Shown one piece after another: positions 7,966 through 41,042 of a stretch of 41,969 nt of DNA. This DNA comes from Enterobacteria phage O276. The notes under the pieces are model-generated. The model ran no database searches, was not told where the DNA came from, and was given only the letters and a program-made list of their open reading frames with translations. The DNA is taken from the sequence record NC_049951.1, one strand, 5' to 3'. The number at the start of each line of letters is the position of its first letter. Positions within the stretch are counted from its first letter, which is position 1. The translations under genes and the position numbers were made by a program.

Positions 7966-7976
7966 AAGGGGGATGT

Positions 7977-8555: not shown

Positions 8556-8947
8556 AACATACTGAACTCCGTGCAGCCGTACTGGATGCACTGGAGAAGC
8601 ATGACACCGGGGCGACGTTTTTTGATGGTCGCCCCGCTGTTTTTGATGAGGCGGATTTTCCGGCAGTTGCCGTTTATCTCACCGGCGCTGAATACACGGG
8701 CGAAGAGCTGGACAGCGATACCTGGCAGGCGGAGCTGCATATCGAAGTTTTCCTGCCTGCTCAGGTGCCGGATTCAGAGCTGGATGCGTGGATGGAGTCC
8801 CGGATTTATCCGGTGATGAGCGATATCCCGGCACTGTCAGATTTGATCACCAGTATGGTGGCCAGCGGCTATGACTACCGGCGCGACGATGATGCGGGCT
8901 TGTGGAGTTCAGCCGATCTGACTTATGTCATTACCTATGAAATGTGA
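8552..8947 (+). CDS. U: tail terminator protein U
   Basis: 131-aa ORF, ATGA overlap with Z. Confidence 0.9.
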
Positions 8948-8954
8948 GGACGCT

Positions 8955-9695: not shown

Positions 9696-9710
9696 TCCGG
9701 AGAGTCAGCG

Positions 9711-10133
9711 ATGTTCCTGAAAACCGAATCATTTGAACATAACGGTGTGACCGTCACGCTTTCTGAACTGTCAGCCCTGCAGCGCATTGAGCATCTCGCC
9801 CTGATGAAACGGCAGGCAGAACAGGCGGAGTCAGACAGCAACCGGAAGTTTACTGTGGAAGACGCCATCAGAACCGGCGCGTTTCTGGTGGCGATGTCCC
9901 TGTGGCATAACCATCCGCAGAAGACGCAGATGCCGTCCATGAATGAAGCCGTTAAACAGATTGAGCAGGAAGTGCTTACCACCTGGCCCACGGAGGCAAT
10001 TTCTCATGCTGAAAACGTGGTGTACCGGCTGTCTGGTATGTATGAGTTTGTGGTGAATAATGCCCCTGAACAGACAGAGGACGCCGGGCCCGCAGAGCCT
10101 GTTTCTGCGGGAAAGTGTTCGACGGTGAGCTGA
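9711..10133 (+). CDS. G: tail assembly chaperone G
   Basis: 140-aa ORF ending just after the slippery site. Confidence 0.9.
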   Translation: MFLKTESFEHNGVTVTLSELSALQRIEHLALMKRQAEQAESDSNRKFTVEDAIRTGAFLVAMSLWHNHPQKTQMPSMNEAVKQIEQEVLTTWPTEAISHAENVVYRLSGMYEFVVNNAPEQTEDAGPAEPVSAGKCSTVS

Positions 10134-10549
10134 GTTTTGCCCTGAAACTGGCGCGTGAGATGGGGCGACCCGACTGGCGTGCCATGCTTGCCGGGATGTC
10201 ATCCACGGAGTATGCCGACTGGCACCGCTTTTACAGTACCCATTATTTTCATGATGTTCTGCTGGATATGCACTTTTCCGGGCTGACGTACACCGTGCTC
10301 AGCCTGTTTTTCAGCGATCCGGATATGCATCCGCTGGATTTCAGTCTGCTGAACCGGCGCGAGGCTGACGAAGAGCCTGAAGATGATGTGCTGATGCAGA
10401 AAGCGGCAGGGCTTGCCGGAGGTGTCCGCTTTGGCCCGGACGGGAATGAAGTTATCCCCGCTTCCCCGGATGTGGCGGACATGACGGAGGATGACGTAAT
10501 GCTGATGACAGTATCAGAAGGGATCGCAGGAGGAGTCCGGTATGGCTGA
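9711..10549 (+). CDS. T: tail assembly chaperone G-T, made by -1 programmed frameshift at the end of G
   Basis: The -1 frame ORF (to 10549) overlaps the G 3' end; slippery heptamer at 10109..10115. Confidence 0.85.
10109..10115 (+). promoter_or_regulatory. -1 frameshift slippery heptamer G GGA AAG
   Basis: GGGAAAG read in the G zero frame as GCG GGA AAG. Confidence 0.8.
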
Positions 10550-13103: not shown

Positions 13104-13429
13104 AGACCTTCCGCTGGAAAGTGAAACCCGGTATGGATGTGGCTTCGGTCCCTTCTGTAAGAAAGGTGCGCTTTGGTGATGGCTATTCTCAGCGAGCGCC
13201 TGCCGGGCTGAATGCCAACCTGAAAACGTACAGCGTGACGCTTTCTGTCCCCCGTGAGGAGGCCACGGTACTGGAGTCGTTTCTGGAAGAGCACGGGGGC
13301 TGGAAATCCTTTCTGTGGACGCCGCCTTATGAGTGGCGGCAGATAAAGGTGACCTGCGCAAAATGGTCGTCGCGGGTCAGTATGCTGCGTGTTGAGTTCA
13401 GCGCAGAGTTTGAACAGGTGGTGAACTGA
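13100..13429 (+). CDS. M: tail tip protein M
   Basis: 109-aa ORF, ATGA overlap with H. Confidence 0.9.
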   Translation: MKTFRWKVKPGMDVASVPSVRKVRFGDGYSQRAPAGLNANLKTYSVTLSVPREEATVLESFLEEHGGWKSFLWTPPYEWRQIKVTCAKWSSRVSMLRVEFSAEFEQVVN

Positions 13430-14127
13430 TGCAGGATATCCGGCAGGAAACACTGAATGAATGCACCCGTGCGGAGCAGTCGGCCAGCGTGGTGCTCTGG
13501 GAAATCGACCTGACAGAGGTCGGTGGAGAACGTTATTTTTTCTGTAATGAGCAGAACGAAAAAGGTGAGCCGGTCACCTGGCAGGGGCGACAGTATCAGC
13601 CGTATCCCATTCAGGGGAGCGGTTTTGAACTGAATGGCAAAGGCACCAGTACGCGCCCCACGCTGACGGTTTCTAACCTGTACGGTATGGTCACCGGGAT
13701 GGCGGAAGATATGCAGAGTCTGGTCGGCGGAACGGTGGTCCGGCGTAAGGTTTACGCCCGTTTTCTGGATGCGGTGAACTTCGTCAACGGAAACAGTTAC
13801 GCCGATCCGGAGCAGGAGGTGATCAGCCGCTGGCGCATTGAGCAGTGCAGCGAACTGAGCGCGGTGAGTGCCTCCTTTGTACTGTCCACGCCGACGGAAA
13901 CGGATGGCGCTGTTTTTCCGGGACGTATCATGCTGGCCAACACCTGCACCTGGACCTATCGCGGTGACGAGTGCGGTTATAGCGGTCCGGCTGTCGCGGA
14001 TGAATATGACCAGCCAACGTCCGATATCACGAAGGATAAATGCAGCAAATGCCTGAGCGGTTGTAAGTTCCGCAATAACGTCGGCAACTTTGGCGGCTTC
14101 CTTTCCATTAACAAACTTTCGCAGTAA
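13429..14127 (+). CDS. L: tail tip protein L
   Basis: 232-aa ORF with C-terminal Cys cluster. Confidence 0.9.
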   Translation: MQDIRQETLNECTRAEQSASVVLWEIDLTEVGGERYFFCNEQNEKGEPVTWQGRQYQPYPIQGSGFELNGKGTSTRPTLTVSNLYGMVTGMAEDMQSLVGGTVVRRKVYARFLDAVNFVNGNSYADPEQEVISRWRIEQCSELSAVSASFVLSTPTETDGAVFPGRIMLANTCTWTYRGDECGYSGPAVADEYDQPTSDITKDKCSKCLSGCKFRNNVGNFGGFLSINKLSQ

Positions 14128-14132
14128 ATCCC

Positions 14133-23907: not shown

Positions 23908-24202
23908 CGCAAAGTCTCCGCAATTACACGCAAGAAAAAACCGCCATCAGGCGGCTTGGTGTTCTTTCAGTTCTTCAATTCGAATATTGGTTACGTCTGC
24001 ATGTGCTATCTGCGCCCATATCATCCAGTGGTCGTAGCAGTCGTTGATGTTCTCCGCTTCGATAACTCTGTTGAATGGCTCTCCATTCCATTCTCCTGTG
24101 ACTCGGAAGTGCATTTATCATCTCCATAAAACAAAACCCGCCGTAGCGAGTTCAGATAAAATAAATCCCCGCGAGTGCGAGGATTGTTATGTAATATTGG
24201 GT

Positions 24203-24484
24203 TTAATCATCTATATGTTTTGTACAGAGAGGGCAAGTATCGTTTCCACCGTACTCGTGATAATAATTTTGCACGGTATCAGTCATTTCTCGCACATTGC
24301 AGAATGGGGATTTGTCTTCATTAGACTTATAAACCTTCATGGAATATTTGTATGCCGACTCTATATCTATACCTTCATCTACATAAACACCTTCGTGATG
24401 TCTGCATGGAGACAAGACACCGGATCTGCACAACATTGATAACGCCCAATCTTTTTGCTCAGACTCTAACTCATTGATACTCAT
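24203..24484 (-). CDS. ea8.5: Ea8.5 protein
   Basis: 93-aa ORF at lambda ea8.5 position. Confidence 0.85.
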   Translation of the reverse strand: MSINELESEQKDWALSMLCRSGVLSPCRHHEGVYVDEGIDIESAYKYSMKVYKSNEDKSPFCNVREMTDTVQNYYHEYGGNDTCPLCTKHIDD

Positions 24485-24675
24485 TTATAAACTCCTTGCA
24501 ATGTATGTCGTTTCAGCTAAACGGTATCAGCAATGTTTATGTAAAGAAACAGTAAGATAATACTCAACCCGATGTTTGAGTACGGTCATCATCTGACACT
24601 ACAGACTCTGGCATCGCTGTGAAGACGACGCGAAATTCAGCATTTTCACAAGCGTTATCTTTTACAAAACCGATC

Positions 24676-25224
24676 TCACTCTCCTTTGATGCGAATGCCA
24701 GCGTCAGACATCATATGCAGATACTCACCTGCATCCTGAACCCATTGACCTCCAACCCCGTAATAGCGATGCGTAATGATGTCGATAGTTACTAACGGGT
24801 CTTGTTCGATTAACTGCCGCAGAAACTCTTCCAGGTCACCAGTGCAGTGCTTGATAACAGGAGTCTTCCCAGGATGGCGAACAACAAGAAACTGGTTTCC
24901 GTCTTCACGGACTTCGTTGCTTTCCAGTTTAGCAATACGCTTACTCCCATCCGAGATAACACCTTCGTAATACTCACGCTGCTCGTTGAGTTTTGATTTT
25001 GCTGTTTCAAGCTCAACACGCAGTTTCCCTACTGTTAGCGCAATATCCTCGTTCTCCTGGTCGCGGCGTTTGATGTATTGCTGGTTTCTTTCCCGTTCAT
25101 CCAGCAGTTCCAGCACAATCGATGGTGTTACCAATTCATGGAAAAGGTCTGCGTCAAATCCCCAGTCGTCATGCATTGCCTGCTCTGCCGCTTCACGCAG
25201 TGCCTGAGAGTTAATTTCGCTCAC
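24676..25224 (-). CDS. ea22: Ea22 protein
   Basis: 182-aa coiled-coil-rich ORF at lambda ea22 position. Confidence 0.85.
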   Translation of the reverse strand: MSEINSQALREAAEQAMHDDWGFDADLFHELVTPSIVLELLDERERNQQYIKRRDQENEDIALTVGKLRVELETAKSKLNEQREYYEGVISDGSKRIAKLESNEVREDGNQFLVVRHPGKTPVIKHCTGDLEEFLRQLIEQDPLVTIDIITHRYYGVGGQWVQDAGEYLHMMSDAGIRIKGE

Positions 25225-25442
25225 TTCGAACCTCTCTGTTTACTGATAAGTTCCAGATCCTCCTGGCAACTTGCACAAGTCCGACAACCCTGAACGACCA
25301 GGCGTCTTCGTTCATCTATCGGATCGCCACACTCACAACAATGAGTGGCAGATATAGCCTGGTGGTTCAGGCGGCGCATTTTTATTGCTGTGTTGCGCTG
25401 TAATTCTTCTATTTCTGATGCTGAATCAATGATGTCTGCCAT
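25221..25442 (-). CDS. small C4 zinc-finger protein, TraR/DksA-like
   Basis: 73 aa with CxxC-x17-CxxC (CECG...CRTC); ATGA overlap with ea22 start suggests coupling. Confidence 0.5.
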   Translation of the reverse strand: MADIIDSASEIEELQRNTAIKMRRLNHQAISATHCCECGDPIDERRRLVVQGCRTCASCQEDLELISKQRGSK

Positions 25443-25667
25443 CTTTCATTAATCCCTGAACTGTTGGTTAATACGCTTGAGGGTGAATGCGAATAATAAA
25501 AAAGGAGCCTGTAGCTCCCTGATGATTTTGCTTTTCATGTTCATCGTTCCTTAAAGACGCCGTTTAACATGCCGATTGCCAGGCTTAAATGAGTCGGTGT
25601 GAATCCCATCAGCGTTACCGTTTCGCGGTGCTTCTTCAGTACGCTACGGCAAATGTCATCGACGTTT

Positions 25668-25853
25668 TTATCCGGAAACTGCTGTCTGGCTTTTTTTGAT
25701 TTCAGAATTAGCCTGACGGGCAATGCTGCGAAGGGCGTTTTCCTGCTGAGGTGTCATTGAACAAGTCCCATGTCGGCAAGCATAAGCACACAGAATATGA
25801 AGCCCGCTGCCAGAAAAATGCATTCCGTGGTTGTCATACCTGGTTTCTCTCAT
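25668..25853 (-). CDS. orf61: hypothetical protein orf61
   Basis: 61-aa ORF at lambda orf61 position. Confidence 0.7.
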   Translation of the reverse strand: MRETRYDNHGMHFSGSGLHILCAYACRHGTCSMTPQQENALRSIARQANSEIKKSQTAVSG

Positions 25854-26025
25854 CTGCTTCTGCTTTCGCCACCATCATTTCCAGCTTTTGTGAAAGGGAT
25901 GCGGCTAACGTATGAAATTCTTCGTCTGTTTCTACTGGTATTGGCACAAACCTGATTCCAATTTGAGCAAGGCTATGTGCCATCTCGATACTCGTTCTTA
26001 ACTCAACAGAAGATGCTTTGTGCAT
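25834..26025 (-). CDS. orf63: hypothetical protein orf63
   Basis: 63-aa ORF at lambda orf63 position. Confidence 0.7.
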   Translation of the reverse strand: MHKASSVELRTSIEMAHSLAQIGIRFVPIPVETDEEFHTLAASLSQKLEMMVAKAEADERNQV

Positions 26026-26857: not shown

Positions 26858-27639
26858 GCTGCCACCTTCTGCTCTGCGGCTTTCTGTTTCAGGAATCCAA
26901 GAGCTTTTACTGCTTCGGCCTGTGTCAGTTCTGACGATGCACGAATGTCGCGGCGAAATATCTGGGAACAGAGCGGCAATAAGTCGTCATCCCATGTTTT
27001 ATCCAGGGCGATCAGCAGAGTGTTAATCTCCTGCATGGTTTCATCGTTAACCGGAGTGATGTCGCGTTCCGGCTGACGTTCTGCAGTGTATGCAGTATTT
27101 TCGACAATGCGCTCGGCTTCATCCTTGTCATAGATACCAGCAAATCCGAAGGCCAGACGGGCACACTGAATCATGGCTTTATGACGTAACATCCGTTTGG
27201 GATGCGACTGCCACGGCCCCGTGATTTCTCTGCCTTCGCGAGTTTTGAATGGTTCGCGGCGGCATTCATCCATCCATTCGGTAACGCAGATCGGATGATT
27301 ACGGTCCTTGCGGTAAATCCGGCATGTACAGGATTCATTGTCCTGCTCAAAGTCCATGCCATCAAACTGCTGGTTTTCATTGATGATGCGGGACCAGCCA
27401 TCAACGCCCACCACCGGAACGATGCCGTTCTGCTTATCAGGAAAGGCGTAAATTTCTTTCGTCCACGGATTAAGGCCGTACTGGTTGGCGACGATCAGCA
27501 ATGCGATGAACTGCGCATCGCTGGCATCACCTTTAAATGCCGTCTGGCGAAGAGTGGTGATCAGTTCCTGTGGGTCGACAGAATCCATGCCGACACGTTC
27601 AGCCAGCTTCCCAGCCAGCGTTGCGAGTGCTGTACTCAT
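26854..27639 (-). CDS. bet: Bet single-strand annealing protein (Red beta)
   Basis: 261 aa [36 protein letters not shown]... Confidence 0.97.
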
Positions 27640-27644
27640 CCGTT

Positions 27645-28061
27645 TTATACCTCTGAATCAATATCAACCTGATGGTGAGCAATGGTTTCAACCATGTACC
27701 GGATGTGTTCTGCCATGCGCTCCTGAAACTCAACATCGTCATCAAATGCACGGGTAATGGCTTTTTTGCTGGCCCCGCAGCGTTGTAAATGATCGATGCA
27801 GAGCGATTCAAACAAATGCTGGGGCAGGCCTTTTTCCATGTCGTCTGCCAGTTCTGCCTCTTTCTCTTCACGGGCGAGCTGCTGGTAGTGACGCGCCCAG
27901 CTCTGAGCCTCAAGACGATCCTGAATGTAATAAGCGTTCATGGCTGAACTCCTGAAATAGCTGTGAAAATATCGCCCGCGAAATGCCAGGCTGATTAGGA
28001 AAACAGGAAAGGGGGTTAGTGAATGCTTTTGCTTGATCTCAGTTTCAGCATTAATATCCAT
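27645..28061 (-). CDS. gam: Gam, RecBCD inhibitor
   Basis: 138 aa [32 protein letters not shown]... Confidence 0.95.
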
Positions 28062-28159
28062 TTTTTATAAGCGTCGACGGCTTCACGAAACATCTTTTCA
28101 TCGCCAATAAAAGTGGCGATAGTGAATTTAGTCTGGATAGCCATACGTGTTTGATCCAT
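28016..28159 (-). CDS. kil: Kil, host cell division inhibitor
   Basis: 47-aa [47 protein letters not shown] inside the longer track ORF. Confidence 0.85.
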
Positions 28160-28292
28160 TCTTTGGGACTCCTGGCTGATTAAGTATGTCGATAAGGCGT
28201 TTCCATCCGTCACGTAATTTACGGGTGATTCGTTCAAGTAAAGATTCGGAAGGGCAGCCAGCAACAGGCCACCCTGCAATGGCATATTGCAT
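28128..28292 (-). CDS. cIII: CIII, FtsH protease inhibitor
   Basis: 54-aa MQYAIAGWPVAGCPSESLLERITRKLRDGWKRLIDILNQPGVPK... Confidence 0.9.
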   Translation of the reverse strand: MQYAIAGWPVAGCPSESLLERITRKLRDGWKRLIDILNQPGVPKNGSNTYGYPD

Positions 28293-28364
28293 GGTGTGCT
28301 CCTTATTTATACATAACGAAAAACGCCTCGAGTGAAGCGTTATTGGTATGCGGTAAAACCGCAC

Positions 28365-28733
28365 TCAGGCGGCCTTGATAGTCATATCATCTGAATCAAA
28401 TATTCCTGATGTATCGATATCGGTAATTCTTATTCCTTCACTACCATCCATTGGAGGCCATCCTTCCTGACCATTTCCATCATCCCAGTCGAACTCACAA
28501 ACAACACCATATGCATTTAAGTCTTTCGAAATTGCTATAAGCAGAGCATGTTGCGCCAGCATGATTAATACAGCATTTAATAAAGAGCCGTGTTTATTGA
28601 GTCGGTATTCAGAGTCTGACCAGAAATTATTAATCTGGTGAAGTTTTTCCTCTGTCATTACGTCATGGTCGATTTCAATTTCTATTGATGCTTTCCAGTC
28701 GTAATCAATGATGTATTTTTTGATGTTTGACAT
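28365..28733 (-). CDS. ea10: Ea10 protein
   Basis: 122-aa ORF at lambda ea10 position. Confidence 0.85.
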   Translation of the reverse strand: MSNIKKYIIDYDWKASIEIEIDHDVMTEEKLHQINNFWSDSEYRLNKHGSLLNAVLIMLAQHALLIAISKDLNAYGVVCEFDWDDGNGQEGWPPMDGSEGIRITDIDTSGIFDSDDMTIKAA

Positions 28734-28854
28734 CTGTTCATATCCTCACAGATAAAAAATCGCCCTCACACTGGAGGGCAAAGAAGATTTCCAATAATCA
28801 GAACAAGTCGACTCCTGTTTAGTTACGAGCGACATTGCTCCGTGTATTCACTCG

Positions 28855-28863
28855 TTGGAATGA
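28855..28863 (+). repeat. 9-bp target-site duplication TTGGAATGA (left copy)
   Basis: Identical 9-mer immediately outside each IS inverted repeat. Confidence 0.9.
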
Positions 28864-29920
28864 GGCTTTGTTGAATAAATCAGATTTCGGGTAAGTCTCC
28901 CCCGTAGCGGGTTGTGTTTTCAGGCAATACGCACGCTTTCAGGCATACCTGCTTTCGTCATTTTGTTCAGCGCTCGTACCAGGGCCATAGCCTCTGCAAC
29001 CTGACCATCGTAGTCACGCAGTGTCAGTGAACCCCCGAACAGCTGTTTTACCCGGTACATCGCCGTTTCCGCTATCGAGCGACGGTTGTAATCTGTTGTC
29101 CATTTCCACCGCGCATTACTCCCGGTCATTCGCTGATTAGCCACTGCACGGTTACGGTCTGCATATTCACCGGGCCAGTAACCCGCACCTTTTCGGGGAG
29201 GGATAAGCGCGCTGATTTTCTTACGCCGCAGTTCATCGTGACATAGCCGGGTATCGTAAGCGCCATCGGCGGCGGCTGACCTGATTTTCCGGTGGGTTTG
29301 CCGGATTAACCCGGGGAAGGCCTCTGAGTCCGTAACGTTGTTCAGCGACAGGTCAGCGCAGATGATTTCATGTGTTTTACTGTCAACGGCGAGATGCAGC
29401 TTACGCCAGATACGGCGGCGTTCCTGGCCATGCTTTTTGACTTTCCACTCGCCTTCACCGAAGACCTTCAGCCCGGTGGAATCAATTACCAGGTGTGCGA
29501 TTTCACCCCGGGTGGGCGTTTTGAAACTGACATTAACCGACTTTGCCCGCCTGCTGACACAGCTGTAATCCGGGCAGCGTAGCGGAACGTTCATCAGAGA
29601 AAAAATGGAATCAATAAAGCCCTGCGCAGCGCGCAGGGTCAGCCTGAATACGCGTTTAATGACCAGCACAGTCGTGATGGCAAGGTCAGAATAGCGCTGA
29701 GGTCTGCCTCGTGAAGAAGGTGTTGCTGACTCATACCAGGCCTGAATAGCTTCATCATCCAGCCAGAAAGTTATGGAGCCACGGTTGATGAGGGCTTTAT
29801 TGTAGGTGGGCCAGTTGGTGATTTTGAACTTTTGCTTTGCCACGGAACGGTCTGCGTTGTCGGGAAGATACGTGATCTGATCCTTCAACTCAGCAAAAGT
29901 TCGATTTATTCAACAAAGCC
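28864..29920 (-). mobile_element. IS903: IS903-family insertion sequence (IS5 family), 1057 bp
   Basis: Perfect 18-bp terminal inverted repeats GGCTTTGTTGAATAAATC at 28864..28881 and 29903..29920; one transposase ORF; 9-bp TSD. Confidence 0.93.
28920..29843 (-). CDS. tnp: IS903 transposase (DDE, IS5 family), 307 aa from GTG start
   Basis: ...VAKQKFKITNWPTYNKALINRGSITFWLDDEAIQAWY...; track ORF runs 15 codons further upstream to 29888. Confidence 0.9.
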   Translation of the reverse strand: MAKQKFKITNWPTYNKALINRGSITFWLDDEAIQAWYESATPSSRGRPQRYSDLAITTVLVIKRVFRLTLRAAQGFIDSIFSLMNVPLRCPDYSCVSRRAKSVNVSFKTPTRGEIAHLVIDSTGLKVFGEGEWKVKKHGQERRRIWRKLHLAVDSKTHEIICADLSLNNVTDSEAFPGLIRQTHRKIRSAAADGAYDTRLCHDELRRKKISALIPPRKGAGYWPGEYADRNRAVANQRMTGSNARWKWTTDYNRRSIAETAMYRVKQLFGGSLTLRDYDGQVAEAMALVRALNKMTKAGMPESVRIA

Positions 29921-29929
29921 TTGGAATGA
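29921..29929 (+). repeat. 9-bp target-site duplication TTGGAATGA (right copy)
   Basis: Direct repeat of 28855..28863. Confidence 0.9.
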
Positions 29930-29957
29930 ATACACAGTGCAGTGTTTATTCTGTTGT

Positions 29958-29989
29958 TTGCGTGAAAATGAAACCCGCCTGAGCGGGTT
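29958..29989 (-). terminator. intrinsic terminator at the 3' end of nun
   Basis: AACCCGC-tcag-GCGGGTT hairpin followed by a T-rich run on the minus strand; overlaps the nun stop. Confidence 0.55.
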
Positions 29990-30326
29990 ATGACCACTTT
30001 TTGTTTGGGTTTCGCTGGTGAGCGTGATTAACAACTCTGTGCATTACATCCTCATATTTTTCATCTTCAATTTTTTCGACATCGCGAGGAAATGGTGTTG
30101 CTAATGCTTTGTCAACTTTGTCCATTGGGTCTTCATTAATCTTATATTCAGGACCGTCATCTATAGCATTAAATCCAGGTGTCACACCGTTTTTTAATGC
30201 ATATGCTATCCTTTTTTCCCATCTCGCTATTCTCCTCCTGTCTCGAGATGTAAGACCTCTATCAGATACTTTTCTGTTTTGTCCGCTGTCAGGATTAACA
30301 TAAATAGTCTTTTTCACCATAAGCAT
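29988..30326 (-). CDS. nun: Nun transcription-termination factor (HK022-type, arginine-rich motif); alternative ATG at 30320
   Basis: ARM DRGLTSRDRRRIARWEKRIAYALKNG and C-terminal ...NPNKKWS with penultimate Trp. Confidence 0.8.
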   Translation of the reverse strand: MLMVKKTIYVNPDSGQNRKVSDRGLTSRDRRRIARWEKRIAYALKNGVTPGFNAIDDGPEYKINEDPMDKVDKALATPFPRDVEKIEDEKYEDVMHRVVNHAHQRNPNKKWS

Positions 30327-30584
30327 ACCCAATAAGCACCGTACGGTAGTTTACTGTACAATTTTATTTTTTGGACTGCATGTATTTTGTTTCCTAATGG
30401 GTTTGAATCTTTGCAATAAATACTTCTATTTTTTCGAACGACTTCTATATCAAAAAGCTGCTTTGCTTTTTGTGACTAAAAGCAAAAAAGCCTTCTCGCT
30501 AATGAGCAGCATTGCCGTTCATCCTGAACCCGCCGCGCTCCCGACGCATGGTTTAAAGACGCGCCGTTCGTCTATGGGCTTATG

Positions 30585-30684
30585 ATGTACTTAAAGTTCA
30601 TTAATGTAAAGTACCAATAGTACATTTTATGGGTATAAAAAGCTCACTACATCATAAGTTAGTGAACTTTAAGGAAATTTATTT
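30585..30684 (-). promoter_or_regulatory. left operator/promoter region (OL/pL-type) for the heterologous repressor
   Basis: Repeated TTAAAGTTCA / TGAACTTTAA half-site palindromes just beyond the cI stop, upstream of the leftward operon. Confidence 0.5.
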
Positions 30685-31392
30685 TTATCCGAATCGCTTG
30701 TAATCGATTGACTGCCTAATGAGGACTTTGGCTAGAATGTGAAGTTGCTCTTCTTCACCTTCTTCTATGTACCATCGATCATAAGCGGCATTGTCAGAGA
30801 TGACGGCAAGCCTGTTCTTTTGCATTTGCAGGCGCTTAACGTGCATTGTTTTCCCGTATACAAACACATAAATGCCATCGCCATCAAAACAGGTTATGGA
30901 TACAACAACAAAGATCTCATCTCCCGGATTGATGGTTCCCTCCATGCTGTCACCGCGAACCGTGATGACTTTTACGCTTTCCTGTGGCCTTCCATTAAAT
31001 AAAATTCTTGCCTGCTCGGTCGTATATTCAATTGCTCTTATCTTTTCTATAAATTCATTGGAAACCATGGTTCCTGGCCCGGCGCTCGCCTGAACATCCA
31101 ATACATCAACACGATAATAATCATTTGATCTTGATAGATGATTTACCGTGATACCGTCATCATCAGCATAGCCATGCAGATATGCAGCAGTAGTTCCCAG
31201 CACCGAAGCCAGAGATTCCATCTTGTCTTTTCTTGGTATTGACTCCCCGTTGAACCATTTACTAATGGCTTTTGGTGTGACCTTAAGCCTGACAGCTAAA
31301 TCAGCCTGCCTACCATGCAAAGGTAATCCCGCTTTATCACAGGCCAGCGCAAGCCTCTGCGAGAAAGTTTCACGCTCTTTCTGTTGAACCAT
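30685..31392 (-). CDS. cI: CI-type repressor (HTH + LexA-like S24 peptidase domain), non-lambda allele
   Basis: HTH ...GRQADLAVRLKVTPKAISKWFNGE...; C-terminal GDSM...K; start chosen at M56 of the track ORF because upstream residues overlap PR and cro. Confidence 0.8.
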   Translation of the reverse strand: MVQQKERETFSQRLALACDKAGLPLHGRQADLAVRLKVTPKAISKWFNGESIPRKDKMESLASVLGTTAAYLHGYADDDGITVNHLSRSNDYYRVDVLDVQASAGPGTMVSNEFIEKIRAIEYTTEQARILFNGRPQESVKVITVRGDSMEGTINPGDEIFVVVSITCFDGDGIYVFVYGKTMHVKRLQMQKNRLAVISDNAAYDRWYIEEGEEEQLHILAKVLIRQSIDYKRFG

Positions 31393-31457
31393 AAGTTCAA
31401 CTATATTAGGTATTGACTGTACTATCAGTTCCGTCATAATATGAACCATAAGTTCAC
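31385..31457 (+). promoter_or_regulatory. OR-type operator/promoter region: two copies of the 15-bp palindrome TGAACCATAAGTTCA flanking PR (-35 TTGACT, -10 TAATAT); divergent PRM-like -10 TAATAT
   Basis: Palindromes at 31385..31399 and 31443..31457; TTGACT 31413..31418, TAATAT 31437..31442; reverse-strand TAATAT at 31403..31408. Confidence 0.7.
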
Positions 31458-31471
31458 CACAGGAGAGAAGC

Positions 31472-31702
31472 ATGAACGAAGTTACGTTTGGAGAAGTTAT
31501 CAAATCCGTTCGAGTTTCTGTTGTGGCTGATGTTTGTGGACTTACGCCAAAAGCCATCTATAAGTGGCTTGAGCGTGGTTCTCTGCCGCGTACCGAGTTC
31601 ACTGGTGAAACCGAATATGCGGATAAGATCGCCAAGGCATCAGGCGGCAAGTACTCAGCAGCACAGATTCGCCGTATCGGTAAACAGCAGTTTGTTATGT
31701 AA
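31472..31702 (+). CDS. cro: Cro-type repressor, non-lambda allele
   Basis: 76-aa HTH protein just downstream of PR; AGGAGA SD. Confidence 0.8.
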   Translation: MNEVTFGEVIKSVRVSVVADVCGLTPKAIYKWLERGSLPRTEFTGETEYADKIAKASGGKYSAAQIRRIGKQQFVM

Positions 31703-31823
31703 TAAAAATGTACTTTTAGTACCGAACGGCCCGGTATACGGTCGGGTGCCCGGCGTGGTCAAGGATGACTGTCAATGGTGCACGATAAAAACCCAAATTA
31801 TTTACCTATGGAGATAGTAAGAA

Positions 31824-32120
31824 ATGACACAAACAAGTTACAGCAAGCCAACACAGCGAGAAATTGATCGCGCTGAAACTGATTTACTCATCAACCTGTC
31901 AACGCTTACCCAGCGCGGTCTGGCAAAGATGATTGGCTGTCATGAATCGAAGATAAGCAGAACGGACTGGAGATTTATTGCTTCGGTCTTGTGTGCTTTC
32001 GGAATGGCATCAGACATCAGTCCGATTAGCAGGGCTTTTAAGTATGCGCTTGATGAAATCACAAAGAAAAAATCCCCGGCCGCCACCGAGGATTTTAAGC
32101 AAATTGATATGCAATTCTGA
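31824..32120 (+). CDS. cII: CII-type transcriptional activator, non-lambda allele
   Basis: 98 aa; C-terminal ...KKSPAATEDFKQIDMQF resembles lambda CII ...KKRPAATERSEQIQMEF. Confidence 0.8.
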   Translation: MTQTSYSKPTQREIDRAETDLLINLSTLTQRGLAKMIGCHESKISRTDWRFIASVLCAFGMASDISPISRAFKYALDEITKKKSPAATEDFKQIDMQF

Positions 32121-32152
32121 GGGAATTACTGGATCTATCAACAGGAGTCATT

Positions 32153-33052
32153 ATGACAAATACAGCAAAAATACTCAACTTCGGCAGAGGTAACTTTGCC
32201 GGACAGGAGCGTAATGTGGCAGATCTCGATGATGGTTACGCCAGACTATCAAATATGCTGCTTGAGGCTTATTCGGGCGCAGATCTGACCAAGCGACAGT
32301 TTAAAGTGCTGCTTGCCATTCTGCGTAAAACCTATGGGTGGAATAAACCAATGGACAGAATCACCGATTCTCAACTTAGCGAGATTACAAAGTTACCTGT
32401 CAAACGGTGCAATGAAGCCAAGTTAGAACTCGTCAGAATGAATATTATCAAGCAGCAAGGCGGCATGTTTGGACCAAATAAAAACATCTCAGAATGGTGT
32501 ATCCCTCAAAACGAGGGAAAATCCCCTAAAACGAGGGATAAAACATCCCTCAAATTGGGGGATTGCTATCCCTCAAAACAGGGGGACACAAAAGACACTA
32601 TTACAAAAGAAAAAAGAAAAGATTATTCGTCCGAGAATTCTGGCGAATCCTCTGACCAGCCAGAAAACGATCTTTCTGTGGTTAAACCGGATGCTGCAAT
32701 TCAGAGCGGCAGCAAGTGGGGAACAGCAGAAGACCTGACCGCCGCAGAGTGGATGTTTGACATGGTGAAGACCATCGCGCCATCAGCCAGAAAACCGAAT
32801 TTTGCTGGGTGGGCTAACGATATCCGCCTGATGCGTGAACGTGACGGACGTAACCACCGCGATATGTGTGTGCTTTTCCGCTGGGCCTGCCAGGACAACT
32901 TCTGGTCCGGTAACGTGCTGAGTCCGGCCAAACTCCGCGACAAGTGGACCCAGCTCGAAATCAACCGTAACAAGCAACAGGCAGGCGTGACAGCCAGCAA
33001 ACCAAAACTCGACCTGACAAACACTGACTGGATTTACGGGGTGGATTTATGA
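32153..33052 (+). CDS. O: replication initiator O
   Basis: 299 aa MTNTAKILNFGRGNFAGQERNVADLDDGYARLSNMLLEAYSGADLTKRQFK... Confidence 0.97.
   Translation: MTNTAKILNFGRGNFAGQERNVADLDDGYARLSNMLLEAYSGADLTKRQFKVLLAILRKTYGWNKPMDRITDSQLSEITKLPVKRCNEAKLELVRMNIIKQQGGMFGPNKNISEWCIPQNEGKSPKTRDKTSLKLGDCYPSKQGDTKDTITKEKRKDYSSENSGESSDQPENDLSVVKPDAAIQSGSKWGTAEDLTAAEWMFDMVKTIAPSARKPNFAGWANDIRLMRERDGRNHRDMCVLFRWACQDNFWSGNVLSPAKLRDKWTQLEINRNKQQAGVTASKPKLDLTNTDWIYGVDL
32500..32630 (+). repeat. ori: ori lambda: four about 19-bp iterons (ATCCCTCAAAACGAGGGA type) plus AT-rich region, inside O
   Basis: Four tandem imperfect palindromic repeats then an A-rich stretch. Confidence 0.92.
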
Positions 33053-33750: not shown

Positions 33751-34037
33751 CGGGCAAAGAGGCAATTATTCATTACCTGGGGACGCATAATAGCTTCTGT
33801 GCGCCGGACGTTGCCGCGCTAACAGGCGCAACAGTAACCAGCATAAATCAGGCCGCGGCTAAAATGGCACGGGCAGGTCTTCTGGTTATCGAAGGTAAGG
33901 TCTGGCGAACGGTGTATTACCGGTTTGCTACCAGGGAAGAACGGGAAGGAAAGATGAGCACGAACCTGATTTTTAAGGAGTGTCGCCAGAGTGCCGCGAT
34001 GAAACGGGTATTGGCGGTATATGGAGTTAAAAGATGA
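33747..34037 (+). CDS. ren: Ren protein
   Basis: 96-aa ORF, ATGA overlap with P. Confidence 0.9.
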   Translation: MTGKEAIIHYLGTHNSFCAPDVAALTGATVTSINQAAAKMARAGLLVIEGKVWRTVYYRFATREEREGKMSTNLIFKECRQSAAMKRVLAVYGVKR

Positions 34038-34110
34038 CCATCTACATCACTGAGCTAATAACAGGCCTGCTGGTAATCGCAGGCCTTTTTATTTGGGGGA
34101 GAGGGAAGTC

Positions 34111-34551
34111 ATGAAAAAACTAACCTTTGAAATTCGATCTCCAGCACATCAGCAAAACGCTATTCACGCGGTACAGCAAATTCTTCCAGACCCAACCAAA
34201 CCAATCGTAGTAACCATTCAGGAACGCAACCGCAGCTTAGACCAGAATCGAAAGCTTTGGGCTTGCCTTGGTGACGTCTCTCGTCAGGTTGAATGGCATG
34301 GTCGCTGGCTGGATGCAGAAAGCTGGAAGTGTGTGTTTACCGCAGCATTAAAGCAGCAGGATGTTGTTCCTAACCTTGCCGGGAATGGCTTTGTGGTAAT
34401 AGGCCAGTCAACCAGCAGGATGCGTGTAGGCGAATTTGCGGAGCTATTAGAGCTTATACAGGCATTCGGTACAGAGCGTGGCGTTAAGTGGTCAGACGAA
34501 GCGAGACTGGCTCTGGAGTGGAAAGCGAGATGGGGAGACAGGGCTGCATGA
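34111..34551 (+). CDS. ninB: NinB (Orf) recombination mediator
   Basis: MKKLTFEIRSPAHQQNAIHAVQQILPDPTKP... Confidence 0.9.
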   Translation: MKKLTFEIRSPAHQQNAIHAVQQILPDPTKPIVVTIQERNRSLDQNRKLWACLGDVSRQVEWHGRWLDAESWKCVFTAALKQQDVVPNLAGNGFVVIGQSTSRMRVGEFAELLELIQAFGTERGVKWSDEARLALEWKARWGDRAA

Positions 34552-35420
34552 TAAATGTCGTTAGTTTCTCCGGTGGCAGGACGTCAGCATATTTGCTCTG
34601 GCTAATGGAGCAAAAGCGACGGGCAGGTAAAGACGTGCATTACGTTTTCATGGATACAGGTTGTGAACATCCAATGACATATCGGTTTGTCAGGGAAGTT
34701 GTGAAGTTCTGGGATATACCGCTCACCGTATTGCAGGTTGATATCAACCCGGAGCTTGGACAGCCAAATGGTTATACGGTATGGGAACCAAAGGATATTC
34801 AGACGCGAATGCCTGTTCTGAAGCCATTTATCGATATGGTAAAGAAATATGGCACTCCATACGTCGGCGGCGCGTTCTGCACTGACAGATTAAAACTCGT
34901 TCCCTTCACCAAATACTGTGATGACCATTTCGGGCGAGGGAATTACACCACGTGGATTGGCATCAGAGCTGATGAACCGAAGCGGCTAAAGCCAAAGCCT
35001 GGAATCAGATATCTTGCTGAACTGTCAGACTTTGAGAAGGAAGATATCCTCGCATGGTGGAAGCAACAACCATTCGATTTGCAAATACCGGAACATCTCG
35101 GTAACTGCATATTCTGCATTAAAAAATCAACGCAAAAAATCGGACTTGCCTGCAAAGATGAGGAGGGATTGCAGCGTGTTTTTAATGAGGTCATCACGGG
35201 ATCCCATGTGCGTGACGGACATCGGGAAACGCCAAAGGAGATTATGTACCGAGGAAGAATGTCGCTGGACGGTATCGCGAAAATGTATTCAGAAAATGAT
35301 TATCAAGCCCTGTATCAGGACATGGTACGAGCTAAAAGATTCGATACCGGCTCTTGTTCTGAGTCATGCGAAATATTTGGAGGGCAGCTTGATTTCGACT
35401 TCGGGAGGGAAGCTGCATGA
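34548..35420 (+). CDS. ninC: NinC
   Basis: [42 protein letters not shown]... (PAPS-reductase-like SGG motif). Confidence 0.9.
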
Positions 35421-35590
35421 TGCGATGTTATCGGTGCGGTGAATGCAAAGAAGATAACCGCTTCCGACCAAATCAACCTTACTGGAATCGATGGTGTCTC
35501 CGGTGTGAAAGAACACCAACAGGGGTGTTACCACTACCGCAGGAAAAGGAGGACGTGTGGCGAGACAGCGACGAAGTATCACCGACATAA
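35417..35590 (+). CDS. ninD: NinD (small Cys-rich protein)
   Basis: 57-codon [22 protein letters not shown]... translated by hand; below the track length cutoff. Confidence 0.75.
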
Positions 35591-35739
35591 TCTGCGAAAA
35601 CTGCAAATACCTTCCAACGAAACGCACCAGAAATAAACCCAAGCCAATCCCAAAAGAATCTGACGTAAAAACCTTCAACTACACGGCTCACCTGTGGGAT
35701 ATCCGGTGGCTAAGACGTCGTGCGAGGAAAACAAGGTGA
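35557..35739 (+). CDS. ninE: NinE
   Basis: 60-aa ORF at lambda ninE position. Confidence 0.8.
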
Positions 35740-35906
35740 TTGACCAAAATCGAAGTTACGAACAAGAAAGCGTCGAGCGAGCTTTAACGTGCGCTAACTG
35801 CGGTCAGAAGCTGCATGTGCTGGAAGTTCACGTGTGTGAGCACTGCTGCGCAGAACTGATGAGCGATCCGAATAGCTCGATGCACGAGGAAGAAGATGAT
35901 GGCTAA
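35736..35906 (+). CDS. ninF: NinF (GTG start)
   Basis: [56 protein letters not shown]. Confidence 0.8.
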
Positions 35907-36510
35907 ACCAGCGCGAAGACGATGTAAAAACGATGAATGCCGGGAATGGTTTCACCCTGCATTCGCTAATCAGTGGTGGTGCTCTCCAGAGTGTGGAACC
36001 AAGATAGCACTCGAACGACGAAGTAAAGAACGCGAAAAAGCGGAAAAAGCAGCAGAGAAGAAACGACGACGAGAGGAGCAGAAACAGAAAGATAAACTTA
36101 AGATTCGAAAACTCGCCTTAAAGCCCCGCAGTTACTGGATTAAACAAGCCCAACAAGCCGTAAACGCCTTCATCAGAGAAAGAGACCGCGACTTACCATG
36201 TATCTCGTGCGGAACGCTCACGTCTGCTCAGTGGGATGCCGGACATTACCGGACAACTGCTGCGGCACCTCAACTCCGATTTAATGAACGCAATATTCAC
36301 AAGCAATGCGTGGTGTGCAACCAGCACAAAAGCGGAAATCTCGTTCCGTATCGCGTCGAACTGATTAGCCGCATCGGGCAGGAAGCAGTAGACGAAATCG
36401 AATCAAACCATAACCGCCATCGCTGGACTATCGAAGAGTGCAAGGCGATCAAGGCAGAGTACCAACAGAAACTCAAAGACCTGCGAAATAGCAGAAGTGA
36501 GGCCGCATGA
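35896..36510 (+). CDS. ninG: NinG (Rap) Holliday-junction resolvase-like
   Basis: 204-aa ORF with Cys clusters. Confidence 0.9.
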
Positions 36511-36713
36511 CGTTCTCAGTAAAAACCATTCCAGACATGCTCGTTGAAGCATACGGAAATCAGACAGAAGTAGCACGCAGACTGAAATGTAGTCGCGGTA
36601 CGGTCAGAAAATACGTTGATGATAAAGACGGGAAAATGCACGCCATCGTCAACGACGTTCTCATGGTTCATCGCGGATGGAGTGAAAGAGATGCGCTATT
36701 ACGAAAAAATTGA
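36507..36713 (+). CDS. ninH: NinH
   Basis: 68-aa ORF at lambda ninH position. Confidence 0.85.
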
Positions 36714-37356
36714 TGGCAGCAAATACCGAAATATTTGGGTAGTTGGCGATCTGCACGGATGCTACACGAACCTGATGAACAAACTGGATACGATTGGATT
36801 CGACAACAAAAAAGACCTGCTTATCTCGGTGGGCGATTTGGTTGATCGTGGTGCAGAGAACGTTGAATGCCTGGAATTAATCACATTCCCCTGGTTCAGA
36901 GCTGTACGTGGAAACCATGAGCAAATGATGATTGATGGCTTATCAGAGCGTGGAAACGTTAATCACTGGCTGCTTAATGGCGGTGGCTGGTTCTTTAATC
37001 TCGATTACGACAAAGAAATTCTGGCTAAAGCTCTTGCCCATAAAGCAGATGAACTTCCGTTAATCATCGAACTGGTGAGCAAAGATAAAAAATATGTTAT
37101 CTGCCACGCCGATTATCCCTTTGACGAATACGAGTTTGGAAAGCCAGTTGATCATCAGCAGGTAATCTGGAACCGCGAACGAATCAGCAACTCACAAAAC
37201 GGGATCGTGAAAGAAATCAAAGGCGCGGACACGTTCATCTTTGGTCATACGCCAGCAGTGAAACCACTCAAGTTTGCCAACCAAATGTATATCGATACCG
37301 GCGCAGTGTTCTGCGGAAACCTAACATTGATTCAGGTACAGGGAGAAGGCGCATGA
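36691..37356 (+). CDS. ninI: NinI Ser/Thr protein phosphatase
   Basis: [25 protein letters not shown]... calcineurin-like GDLHG / GDLVDRG / GNHE motifs. Confidence 0.92.
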
Positions 37357-37976
37357 GACTCGAAAGCGTAGCTAAATTTCATTCGCCAAAAAGCCCGATG
37401 ATGAGCGACTCACCACGGGCCACGGCTTCTGACTCTCTTTCCGGTACTGATGTGATGGCTGCTATGGGGATGGCGCAATCACAAGCCGGATTCGGTATGG
37501 CTGCATTCTGCGGTAAGCACGAACTCAGCCAGAACGACAAACAAAAGGCTATCAACTATCTGATGCAATTTGCACACAAGGTATCGGGGAAATACCGTGG
37601 TGTGGCAAAGCTTGAAGGAAATACTAAGGCAAAGGTACTGCAAGTGCTCGCAACATTCGCTTATGCGGATTATTGCCGTAGTGCCGCGACGCCGGGGGCA
37701 AGATGCAGAGATTGCCATGGTACAGGCCGTGCGGTTGATATTGCCAAAACAGAGCTGTGGGGGAGAGTTGTCGAGAAAGAGTGCGGAAGATGCAAAGGCG
37801 TCGGCTATTCAAGGATGCCAGCAAGCGCAGCATATCGCGCTGTGACGATGCTAATCCCAAACCTTACCCAACCCACCTGGTCACGCACTGTTAAGCCGCT
37901 GTATGACGCTCTGGTGGTGCAATGCCACAAAGAAGAGTCAATCGCAGACAACATTTTGAATGCGGTCACACGTTAG
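37353..37976 (+). CDS. Q: late antiterminator Q
   Basis: 207-aa ORF with Zn-binding CRDCHGTG...CGRCKG. Confidence 0.95.
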
Positions 37977-38008
37977 CAGCATGATTGCCACGGATGGCAA
38001 CATATTAA

Positions 38009-38037
38009 CGGCATGATATTGACTTATTGAATAAAAT
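38009..38037 (+). promoter_or_regulatory. late promoter pR' (-35 TTGACT, -10 TAAATT) with qut region
   Basis: TTGACT at 38009..38014, 17-bp spacer, TAAATT at 38032..38037, directly after Q. Confidence 0.85.
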
Positions 38038-38188
38038 TGGGTAAATTTGACTCAACGATGGGTTAATTCGCTCGTTGTGGTAGTGAGATGAAAAGAGGCG
38101 GCGCTTACTACCGATTCCGCCTAGTTGGTCACTTCGACGTATCGTCTGGAACTCCAACCATCGCAGGCAGAGAGGTCTGCAAAATGCA

Positions 38189-38248
38189 ATCCCGAAACAG
38201 TTCGCAGGTAATAGTTAGAGCCTGCATAACGGTTTCGGGATTTTTTAT
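38189..38248 (+). terminator. tR' terminator ending the short pR' (6S) transcript
   Basis: Long inverted repeat AATCCCGAAAC...GTTTCGGGATT followed by TTTTTT. Confidence 0.85.
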
Positions 38249-38652
38249 ATCTGCACAACAGGTAAGAGCATTGAGTCGATAATCGTGAAGAGTCGGCGAG
38301 CCTGGTTAGCCAGTGCTCTTTCCGTTGTGCTGAATTAAGCGAATACCGGAAGCAGAACCGGATCACCAAATGCGTACAGGCGTCATCGCCGCCCAGCAAC
38401 AGCACAACCCAAACTGAGCCGTAGCCACTGTCTGTCCTGAATTCATTAGTAATAGTTACGCTGCGGCCTTTTACACATGACCTTCGTGAAAGCGGGTGGC
38501 AGGAGGTCGCGCTAACAACCTCCTGCCGTTTTGCCCGTGCATATCGGTCACGAACAAATCTGATTACTAAACACAGTAGCCTGGATTTGTTCTATCAGTA
38601 ATCGACCTTATTCCTAATTAAATAGAGCAAATCCCCTTATTGGGGGTAAGAC

Positions 38653-38976: not shown

Positions 38977-39436
38977 TCAACGTAAGGCGTTCCTCGATAT
39001 GCTGGCGTGGTCGGAGGGAACTGATAACGGACGTCAGAAAACCAGAAATCATGGTTATGACGTCATTGTAGGCGGAGAGCTATTCACTGATTACTCCGAT
39101 CACCCTCGCAAACTTGTCACGCTAAACCCAAAACTCAAATCAACAGGCGCCGGACGCTACCAGCTTCTTTCCCGTTGGTGGGATGCCTACCGCAAGCAGC
39201 TTGGCCTGAAAGACTTCTCTCCGAAAAGTCAGGACGCTGTGGCATTGCAGCAGATTAAGGAGCGTGGCGCTTTACCTATGATTGATCGTGGTGATATCCG
39301 TCAGGCAATCGACCGTTGCAGCAATATCTGGGCTTCACTGCCGGGCGCTGGTTATGGTCAGTTCGAGCATAAGGCTGACAGCCTGATTGCAAAATTCAAA
39401 GAAGCGGGCGGAACGGTCAGAGAGATTGATGTATGA
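38960..39436 (+). CDS. R: endolysin R (lytic transglycosylase)
   Basis: [39 protein letters not shown]... Confidence 0.97.
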
Positions 39437-39894
39437 GCAGAGTCACCGCGATTATCTCCGCTCTGGTTATCTGCATCATCGTCTGCCTGTCATGGGCTGT
39501 TAATCATTACCGTGATAACGCCATTACCTACAAAGCCCAGCGCGACAAAAATGCCAGAGAACTGAAGCTGGCGAACGCGGCAATTACTGACATGCAGATG
39601 CGTCAGCGTGATGTTGCTGCGCTCGATGCAAAATACACGAAGGAGTTAGCTGATGCTAAAGCTGAAAATGATGCTCTGCGTGATGATGTTGCCGCTGGTC
39701 GTCGTCGGTTGCACATCAAAGCAGTCTGTCAGTCAGTGCGTGAAGCCACCACCGCCTCCGGCGTGGATAATGCAGCCTCCCCCCGACTGGCAGACACCGC
39801 TGAACGGGATTATTTCACCCTCAGAGAGAGGCTGATCACTATGCAAAAACAACTGGAAGGAACCCAGAAGTATATTAATGAGCAGTGCAGATAG
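39433..39894 (+). CDS. Rz: spanin inner-membrane subunit Rz
   Basis: 153 aa, N-terminal TM segment then coiled coil. Confidence 0.95.
39653..39835 (+). CDS. Rz1: spanin outer-membrane lipoprotein Rz1, embedded in the +1 frame of Rz
   Basis: 60 aa with lipobox LVVVGC and proline-rich tail. Confidence 0.9.
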
Positions 39895-39925
39895 AGCTGA
39901 CCATATCGATGGGCAACTCATGCAA

Positions 39926-40219
39926 TTATTTTGAGCAATACACACGCGCTTCCAGCGGAGTATAAATGCCTAAAGTAATAAAACCGAGCAATCCATTTAC
40001 GAATGTTTGCTGGGTTTCTGTTTTAACAACATTTTCTGCGCCGCCACAAATTTTAGCTGCATCGACAGTTTTCTTCTGCCCAATTCCAGAAACGAAGAAA
40101 TGATGGGTGATGGTTTCCTTTGGTGCTACTGCTGCCGGTTTGTTTTGAACAGTAAACGTCTGTTGAGCACATCCTGTAATAAGCAGGGCCAGCGCAGTAG
40201 CGAGTAGCATTTTTTTCAT
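39926..40219 (-). CDS. bor: Bor lipoprotein (serum resistance)
   Basis: 97 aa MKKMLLATALALLITGCAQQ... lipobox. Confidence 0.95.
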   Translation of the reverse strand: MKKMLLATALALLITGCAQQTFTVQNKPAAVAPKETITHHFFVSGIGQKKTVDAAKICGGAENVVKTETQQTFVNGLLGFITLGIYTPLEARVYCSK

Positions 40220-40508: not shown

Positions 40509-41042
40509 TTAGCGTGGAAAGATTTGTGTAGTGTTCTGAATGCTCTCAGTAAATAGTAATGAATTATCAAAGGTATAGTAATATCTTTTATGTTCATGGA
40601 TATTTGTAACCCATCGGAAAACTCCTGCTTTAGCAAGATTTTCCCTGTATTGCTGAAATGTGATTTCTCTTGATTTCAACCTATCATAGGACGTTTCTAT
40701 AAGATGCGTGTTTCTTGAGAATTTAACATTTACAACCTTTTTAAGTCCTTTTATTAACACGGTGTTATCGTTTTCTAACACGATGTGAATATTATCTGTG
40801 GCTAGATAGTAAATATAATGTGAGACGTTGTGACGTTTTAGTTCAGAATAAAACAATTCACAGTCTAAATCTTTTCGCACTTGATCGAATATTTCTTTAA
40901 AAATGGCAACCTGAGCCATTGGTAAAACCTTCCATGTGATACGAGGGCGCGTAGTTTGCATTATCGTTTTTATCGTTTCAATCTGGTCTGACCTCCTTGT
41001 GTTTTGTTGATGATTTATGTCAAATATTAGGAATGTTTTCAC
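40509..41042 (-). CDS. hypothetical protein (lambda p78 / YbcV-like)
   Basis: 177-aa AT-rich minus-strand ORF at lambda p78 position. Confidence 0.8.

Follow-up and report, generated by a model that had tools for sequence, protein, structure and literature searches.

Analysis of the 41,969-nucleotide genome of Enterobacteria phage O276 (NC_049951.1), called the window below, revealed an early region of the phage HK022 type. Leftward transcription starts at the pL promoter (30582..30610, minus strand; TTTACA-17-CATCAT in the promoter scan, with the -10 and -35 hexamers annotated here in X16093), and the first gene of the pL operon is nun (29988..30320, minus strand; HK022 annotation). Rightward transcription starts at pR (31413..31440, plus strand; TTGACT-16-CATAAT, start at about 31447; X16093 annotation), the best promoter match in the scan (10/12). 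The gene of the HK022 cI repressor lies between the promoters (30685..31392, minus strand; Pfam HTH_3 and Peptidase_S24, HK022 annotation), and pR is followed by HK022 cro (31472..31702, plus strand; open reading frame [ORF] and HK022 annotation) and HK022 cII (31824..32120, plus strand; Pfam Phage_CII, E = 5e-33). Because nun is present, N and nut are absent, and the nin terminators are intact, a first-pass annotation made from the letters of the sequence had deduced that an HK022-type early region supplies cis-acting antiterminator RNAs, the put elements, and had located them in the pL-nun leader (30321..30584) and in the cro-cII spacer (31703..31823). Both intervals are real. The leader, bounded by the pL hexamers (30610..30582, minus strand) and nun, holds putL; the spacer, bounded by the cro stop (31702) and the cII ATG (31824), holds putR. 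The GC-rich motif cited for the spacer is present but had been quoted with an error of one base; it reads TCGGGTGCCCGGCG, not CCGGGTGCCCGGCG.

The two intervals almost certainly encode HK022 putL and putR, the type elements, each on its early transcript. With its flanks, putL is 100% identical to HK022 (AF069308/X16093) and to HK75, and putR with its flanks is 100% identical to HK022 (AF069308/X16093). The HK75 GenBank record labels the orthologous sites putL and putR. The alignment to HK022 that had been proposed as a check therefore showed identity over both elements, and the absence of put similarity, named beforehand as a refutation, gave way to full similarity. The proposed locations were right, with the correction that "put-like" understates the elements, which are the type elements themselves.

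putL begins at +3 from the pL start and comprises residues A3-C72 (30504..30573, minus strand; the classical C10-C72 corresponds to 30504-30566). The pL start was fixed at 30575 by matching the transcript numbering used in cryo-electron microscopy (cryo-EM); +1 at this position of the minus strand reproduces 35 of the 35 putL residues named in PMC9378689, including A3GACG7, C15-U19, U28, G35, G42-U65, G43-A64, C44-A63, and C94/U95. In the published putL structure, A3GACG7 pairs with C15-U19, U21-C25 form a third strand, and C26-G29 form a bulge with U28; also named are A9-G35, G12-U32, G42-U65, G43-A64, C44-A63, and G45, with the last pair at C72 (PMC9378689). The putL helices are S1 (3-7:15-19), S2 (10-14:30-34), and stem II (36-72). 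A weak -10-like element of putL occupies +23..+28 (30548-30553, minus strand), and the C94/U95 pause site, which is suppressed by putL, maps to 30481..30482 (minus strand) when the numbering of PMC9378689 is applied. putR lies between cro and cII (31720..31783, plus strand; 31723-31784 by the HK75-type annotation), with helices S1 (31720-31724:31732-31736), S2 (31727-31731:31740-31744), and stem II (31746-31783). Its limits were carried over from the HK75 annotation and set in analogy to the putL 5' duplex. It begins about 274 nt past the pR start, compared with the published "~270 nt" (PMC9378689). The residues found to be essential by mutagenesis (A3-G7, A9, U28, G35, G45, and A64) are all present in putL of the window; putR has equivalents of the 5' duplex, A9, G35, G45, and A64 and, with its 3-nt linker, no equivalent of U28. 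Both elements sit in nascent early transcripts, on the transcribed strand.

A search of the window for the components of the lambda system agreed with the claim that N and the lambda nut boxA-boxB are absent. tblastn with lambda N found nothing in the window. The exact boxA (CGCTCTTA) is absent from the window, and its 1-mismatch matches were at or below chance; boxB (type GCCCTGAAAAAGGGC) gave two 3-mismatch matches in the window, neither near a promoter and at a level expected by chance (48/100 shuffles). BLAST showed that lambda 34035-38591, which holds N, nutL, and nutR, is replaced in the window. HK022 itself is documented as lacking an N-like antiterminator (PMC9378689). The product of nun was assigned to the Nun-like phrog_5632 (E = 9.5e-69) rather than to the N-like phrog_271, and it aligned with lambda N at 30% identity over 60 amino acids (aa) around the arginine-rich motif (E = 3e-4). 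Nun is a relative of N by descent, yet it is a termination and exclusion factor, not an antiterminator; the N homolog elsewhere that would have spoken against the deduction did not, functionally, turn up, Nun being the only relative of N. By its known role Nun terminates transcription at lambda nut sites and thereby excludes lambda, and the hybrid genome offers it no such site. The nin region had been described as intact lambda DNA. It is colinear with lambda, includes the tR2 hairpin, and carries no deletion (window 32059-41969 matches lambda 38592-48502 free of gaps), but its O-P-ren-ninB part (32140 to ~34270) is phage 21 DNA, not lambda DNA.

Several points weigh against the reading of the two intervals as working put elements. 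Minimum-energy folding returned two hairpins in putL and two in putR, in line with the two stem-loops expected for each by the first-pass annotation, but the energies were no better than those of dinucleotide shuffles (z = -0.68 for putL and -0.07 for putR), and the untrimmed intervals behaved likewise (z = -1.37 for the whole pL leader and +0.61 for the whole cro-cII spacer). The put family appears to be missing from Rfam (15), so no curated model supports membership; at the put sites no Rfam match appeared even at E values up to 10. The training set of the covariance model described below holds the two elements of the window, which makes the matches in the window partly circular. The putR linker is 3 nt (UAC), compared with the 10-nt third strand plus U28 bulge of putL, and the solved putL structure is therefore not transferable to stem I of putR. 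Finally, that put acts on the lambda and phage 21 terminators of this hybrid is something we infer. The only window match above the Rfam gathering threshold was the lambda cIII thermoregulator RNA (RF01804, 88.5 bits; 28247-28305, minus strand), which lies within the phage 21-derived flank. Permissive Rfam matches (SL1, a CRISPR repeat, and microRNAs) were at chance level and were dismissed.

Since folding energy was undiscriminating and Rfam offered no put model, the published architecture was tested by covariation, and the case for put rests on covariation together with the identity to HK022. Viral contigs scanned with an exact pattern of the conserved core of stem II yielded 93 loci; the 37 distinct put sequences in them fall into three classes of length. 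In an alignment of 23 sequences, 92.7% of positions designated as paired were paired, compared with 25 to 53% when the 3' partners were slid, and 10 of the 22 pairs had changed on both sides. The covariance model built from this alignment gave exactly two matches in the window, at 30499-30577 (88 bits) and 31716-31788 (76.6 bits), found the same two sites in HK022 and in HK75, and had no match in the lambda genome. Only the negative results and the independent homologues from this model are informative. Over the viral loci the model recovered 135 put copies; among 59 distinct rows, 93.3% of cells were paired and 14 of the 22 pairs were compensatory, a level reached in 0 of 500 shuffles. Within the 5' duplex, which only cryo-EM had revealed, four of five pairs covary. 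The two elements of the window differ from each other in the same manner, with 5' duplexes AGACG/CGUCU in putL and UACCG/CGGUA in putR and compensatory changes at pairs 37-71, 40-67, and 48-58. At the apex of stem II, putR-type copies seemed to be mispaired (approximately 19 to 20 rows, three pairs), which proved to be an alignment artefact: both MAFFT and the covariance-model alignment misplace a one-base length difference at this apex. When the apical helix was counted from fixed anchors, it was 99.6% paired in 63 distinct sequences, compared with 85.5% when shuffled, and pair 48-58 occurred as four pair types among these sequences. Across 59 to 63 distinct sequences, drawn from 86 viral and bacterial loci, covariation gives strong support to the published put architecture. 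Stem I in this architecture is a pseudoknot/triplex and not the simple hairpin of the stem-loop picture. The alignment independently confirms the 5' pseudoknot duplex otherwise known only from cryo-EM, and the covariance model and the nonredundant alignment are now usable for a family that Rfam does not contain.

The two elements of the window may not grip RNA polymerase in the same way. In putL the additional strand forms a minor-groove triplex, and the U28 bulge contacts beta' (PMC9378689). In the model-based alignment, the 7-column gap of the putR class (73 nt) was kept in 24 of the 59 distinct rows. It is conceivable, though the odds are somewhat against it, that putR grips the polymerase with a stem I geometry unlike that of putL and that it folds with no sigma-dependent pause of the kind suggested for putL. 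If this is true, putR would be a structural variant inside the known put family and not a new mechanism. Close to putR, a repressor-binding site, OFR (TGTACTTTTAGTACC; 31709..31723, no strand assigned), was located by transfer of an HK75 annotation ("similar to HK022 OFR"). In the pseudoknot duplex of putR, 4 nt of the 5' strand (31720-31724) also belong to OFR, so that a DNA operator and the start of an RNA element have sequence in common.

According to the proposed mechanism, put would be transcribed within the early pL or pR RNA and would fold on the polymerase while being made. The product would be a V-shaped RNA of approximately 70 nt, in which stem I stacks two helices (3-7:15-19 and 10-14:30-34) in a pseudoknot topology, the third strand of putL lies in the minor groove of stem I, and stem II bears the conserved GGCG/CAAU internal motif. 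At the RNA exit channel, this RNA would bind both the beta flap tip and the zinc-binding domain of beta', stay bound, and counteract swivelling, pausing, and backtracking, so that the put-modified polymerase could pass intrinsic and Rho-dependent terminators at least 10 kb farther on with no phage protein. Polymerase binding, antitermination activity, and range are known from the literature on the identical HK022 sequences. HK022 antitermination needs put alone, overcomes intrinsic and Rho-dependent terminators, extends over at least 10 kb, and is blocked by mutations in the beta' zinc-binding domain; binding persists even when put is cut from the transcript (PMC9378689 and, for the last point, also work cited there). 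The work cited in PMC9378689 comprises Oberto 1993, Clerget 1995, King 1996, Banik-Maiti 1997, Sen 2001, Sloan 2007, and Komissarova 2008.

Polymerase leaving pL meets a series of candidate barriers. Directly after putL, an AU-rich hairpin (30457-30491) is followed by U5 (30452-30456; together 30452..30491, minus strand; fold -17 kcal/mol, z = -2.2). By its predicted fold this structure looks like an intrinsic terminator; the C94/U95 pause lies within the 5' arm of this hairpin. A second terminator-like hairpin, with a U-rich tail, stands directly after nun (29972..29989, minus strand; -15.1 kcal/mol, z = -4.2). It is followed by the 1,057-bp element IS903 (28864..29920, minus strand; HK022 alignment and annotation "IS903 transposase"), flanked by a 9-bp target duplication (TTGGAATGA) at 28855-28863 and 29921-29929. 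IS903 sits between nun and the leftward genes, as it does in HK022, and its transposase is co-oriented with pL transcription; all leftward delayed-early expression must therefore traverse IS903. Downstream of IS903, lambda/21 DNA contains an intrinsic-terminator-like hairpin with U6 (28760..28781, minus strand; z = -3.1). A polymerase modified by putL would read through both hairpins on either side of nun, IS903, and the lambda/21 terminators such as that at 28760-28781 and would thus reach cIII, gam, bet, exo, xis, and int, approximately 8 kb from putL. On the right, a polymerase modified by putR would read through cII, O, P, the tR2-type intrinsic terminator (34063..34086, plus strand; hairpin with T-run, equal to lambda 40596-40619, z = -2.7), and the remaining nin region to Q (37353). 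The tR2-type hairpin, one of the P-Q terminators, lies 2.3 kb downstream of putR. The distance from putR to Q is 5.6 kb, and both the leftward and the rightward distances are within the documented range of put.

Hairpins in an early leader might also stop transcription, and the structures could be ordinary terminators or attenuators equivalent to tL1 or tR1. Hairpins do fold in both regions, and the terminator-like hairpin with its U-run at 30452-30491 lies just downstream of putL. The put elements themselves, however, have no U-run after stem II (AUUAGCGAG follows putL and AUAAAAACCC follows putR), neither was called by the terminator scan, and their conserved non-Watson-Crick motif and covarying pseudoknot helix would be needless in a terminator. 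Sequences identical to these antiterminate in experiments (PMC9378689), which leaves this explanation with next to no probability. Just as implausible is a nut-like role for the sites, as RNA targets of Nun or of an unrecognised phage-encoded analogue of N. Such a view could draw on the position of Nun, a distant relative of N that occupies the place of N, and on the 1989 record X16093, in which feature 2066-2099 ("put. nutL equivalent") maps to window 30451-30484. That annotated hairpin, however, is downstream of putL and is not put; boxA and boxB are lacking, of 86 loci with put only 6 encode Nun, putL is followed by a highly variable first gene, and antitermination proceeds in vitro with RNA polymerase alone and no phage-encoded factor (PMC9378689 and its reference 9).

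The hybrid might, on the other hand, not antiterminate early transcription at all, being defective or depending on leaky readthrough, with the put elements as mere passengers of the immunity swap. The genome looks like a laboratory construct with deletions. Against this stand the nin terminators, which are all present with no nin-type deletion to bypass them, the put elements, promoters, and spacing, which are intact and identical to those of functional HK022, and the complete set of essential lambda genes with both cos ends. This explanation is accordingly very improbable, if slightly less so than the other two.

The setting of the two elements is a mosaic. The window is a complete genome whose left end is lambda base 1 and whose right end is lambda base 48502; its parentage was resolved by BLAST against lambda and HK022 and then by searches with flank sequences. 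Lambda 1-19787 corresponds to window 1-19788, lambda ~19788-22950 has been lost in a first deletion of the b region, lambda 22951-23923 corresponds to window 19775-20747, and a second b-region deletion has removed lambda ~23924-25908. Lambda DNA continues from 20738 to ~27400 and is followed by phage 21 DNA in the left flank of the immunity region (~27427-28862; 99.9% identical to 21 and 98.3% to lambda), the HK022 core with IS903, nun, pL, cI, pR, cro, and cII (28863-32135), phage 21 DNA in the right flank (32140 to ~34270; 100% identical), and lambda DNA from ~34270 up to the cos end on the right. Over 29900-32164 the window and HK022 agree at 99.8% identity, and the HK022 segment codes only for IS903 transposase, Nun, cI, Cro, and cII. 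On the left, the switch to HK022 DNA falls within a block of approximately 90 bp common to the parents, just left of IS903 (28812-28862); the right crossover (32125-32135) falls within 11 bp located after the stop codon of cII and before O begins. Both b-region deletions show approximately 10 to 14 bp of junction microhomology (junctions ~19775-19788 and ~20738-20747), and attP is kept. In position the deletions resemble b515/b519, the classical pair in laboratory strains of lambda. The combination of lambda, 21, and HK022 was matched by no record in the phage collection or in complete Escherichia coli genomes, which, together with the three sources of DNA, indicates a three-parent, laboratory-style hybrid. 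No essential lambda gene is missing, both cos ends are in place, and lambda Q (37353-37976) is available for the late operon. In the right arm, the stretch from the lysis/Rz genes towards cos (39085-40055) carries 5 isolated mismatches to reference lambda, the rest of the region being identical.

In other genomes put occurs in the same arrangement. All 56 of the 56 two-copy viral loci carry an outward-facing pair of one putL-type and one putR-type element, 1.1 to 2.9 kb apart, as in the window. Bacterial genomes gave at least 10 model-passing matches; among the matches listed, all were in Enterobacterales, in the genera Kluyvera, Siccibacter, Enterobacter, Winslowiella, Pantoea, and Escherichia. 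Viral and bacterial put loci together number 86. The 6 loci with Nun downstream of putL include two whose Nun is only 58 to 65% identical to that of HK022, and this rarity indicates that put function is independent of Nun, in line with the literature. The slot after putL is hypervariable and holds HNH endonucleases of approximately 165 to 180 aa, zinc-ribbon-like proteins of 53 to 77 aa, a family of 138 to 151 aa, or Nun (for example, after the elements at L075 6423-6501, L008 6752-6830, and L046 3325-3403, among viral loci L006-L098). The possibility that put phages also carry N was considered and rejected: with lambda N as the sole query, so that divergent N types lay outside the scope, tblastn matches in 11 loci were relics of 23 to 31 codons or Nun. 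The relics lie after the first ORF, and L061 has a 5'-truncated relic of N at the contig end. Relics of approximately 30 codons from the 3' end of lambda N in several loci suggest that an ancestral N was repeatedly replaced by recombination.

Some copies depart from the two types found in the window. A third length class of 74 to 75 nt has the 5' duplex GUUG/CAAC and stem II closing pairs U-A and C-G and occurs as a single copy per locus (L065 5338-5412, L080 3962-4036, L054 7908-7982, L039 10207-10281, L090 258-331, and L158 3342-3415, the last from Candidatus Pantoea communis). In L065, L054, and L158 it is followed by an acidic protein of 241 to 246 aa. The annotated phage collection offered nothing close to this class (best, 77 to 78% over 84%), which may be the same as put-like elements reported in 2011. 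Two divergent putL-like copies, at L061 4243-4320 (plus strand, 56.8 bits) and L018 9303-9380 (minus strand, 37.7 bits), retain stem I together with the GGCG/CAAU core, and their lower stem II is fully rewritten with compensating changes. The lower stem II of L061, a locus whose cI and cro are otherwise of the HK022 type, is CCAUA/UAUGG; L018 has three covariance-model matches.

Factor-independent antitermination by put is already known biology and is rediscovered here. It has been known since 1993-1996 and its structure was solved in 2022, so the finding matters little as a discovery; the deduction from raw sequence was nevertheless correct and placed both elements in the right intervals, which makes it a positive control for the scan. 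The closest known system is HK022 itself, with the same putL and putR sequence, the same position relative to pL and pR, and the same neighbouring genes nun, cI, cro, and cII; the difference is confined to the DNA downstream, with lambda and 21 genes and terminators instead of those of HK022. The HK022 elements are said to have been described by King et al. in 1996 (Cell 87:893) and by Banik-Maiti et al. in 1997. HK75 and other lambdoid put-like elements show the same outward-facing pair around the immunity region and the same covarying helices, but the HK75-type and other copies differ from the HK022 alleles of the window in the 5' duplex, in pairs 36-72, 37-71, 40-67, and 48-58, and in the loops. 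Those of HK75 and of other lambdoid phages and prophages were reportedly treated by King et al. in 2011 (J Bacteriol 193:5784). The EAR RNA of the Bacillus eps operon is the other RNA reported for processive antitermination. It is likewise a structured RNA acting in cis with long-distance readthrough, but it is unrelated to put in sequence and fold and belongs to a Gram-positive chromosomal operon. The lambda N/nut system occupies the same genomic positions, after pL and between cro and cII, and has the same outcome, processive early antitermination; it needs a 15-nt boxB hairpin, host Nus factors, and N, a protein with an arginine-rich motif and with regions that bind NusA and polymerase, whereas the put RNA itself binds polymerase, as in the putL-polymerase cryo-EM structures 7XUE and 7XUI (Hwang et al. 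2022; PMC9378689). Lambda Q/qut and RfaH/ops are likewise processive anti-pausing and antitermination systems, but they are proteins that load at DNA sites while the polymerase is in a sigma-dependent or ops pause, whereas put is a nascent RNA. In resisting swivelling, put has been likened to RfaH (PMC9378689).

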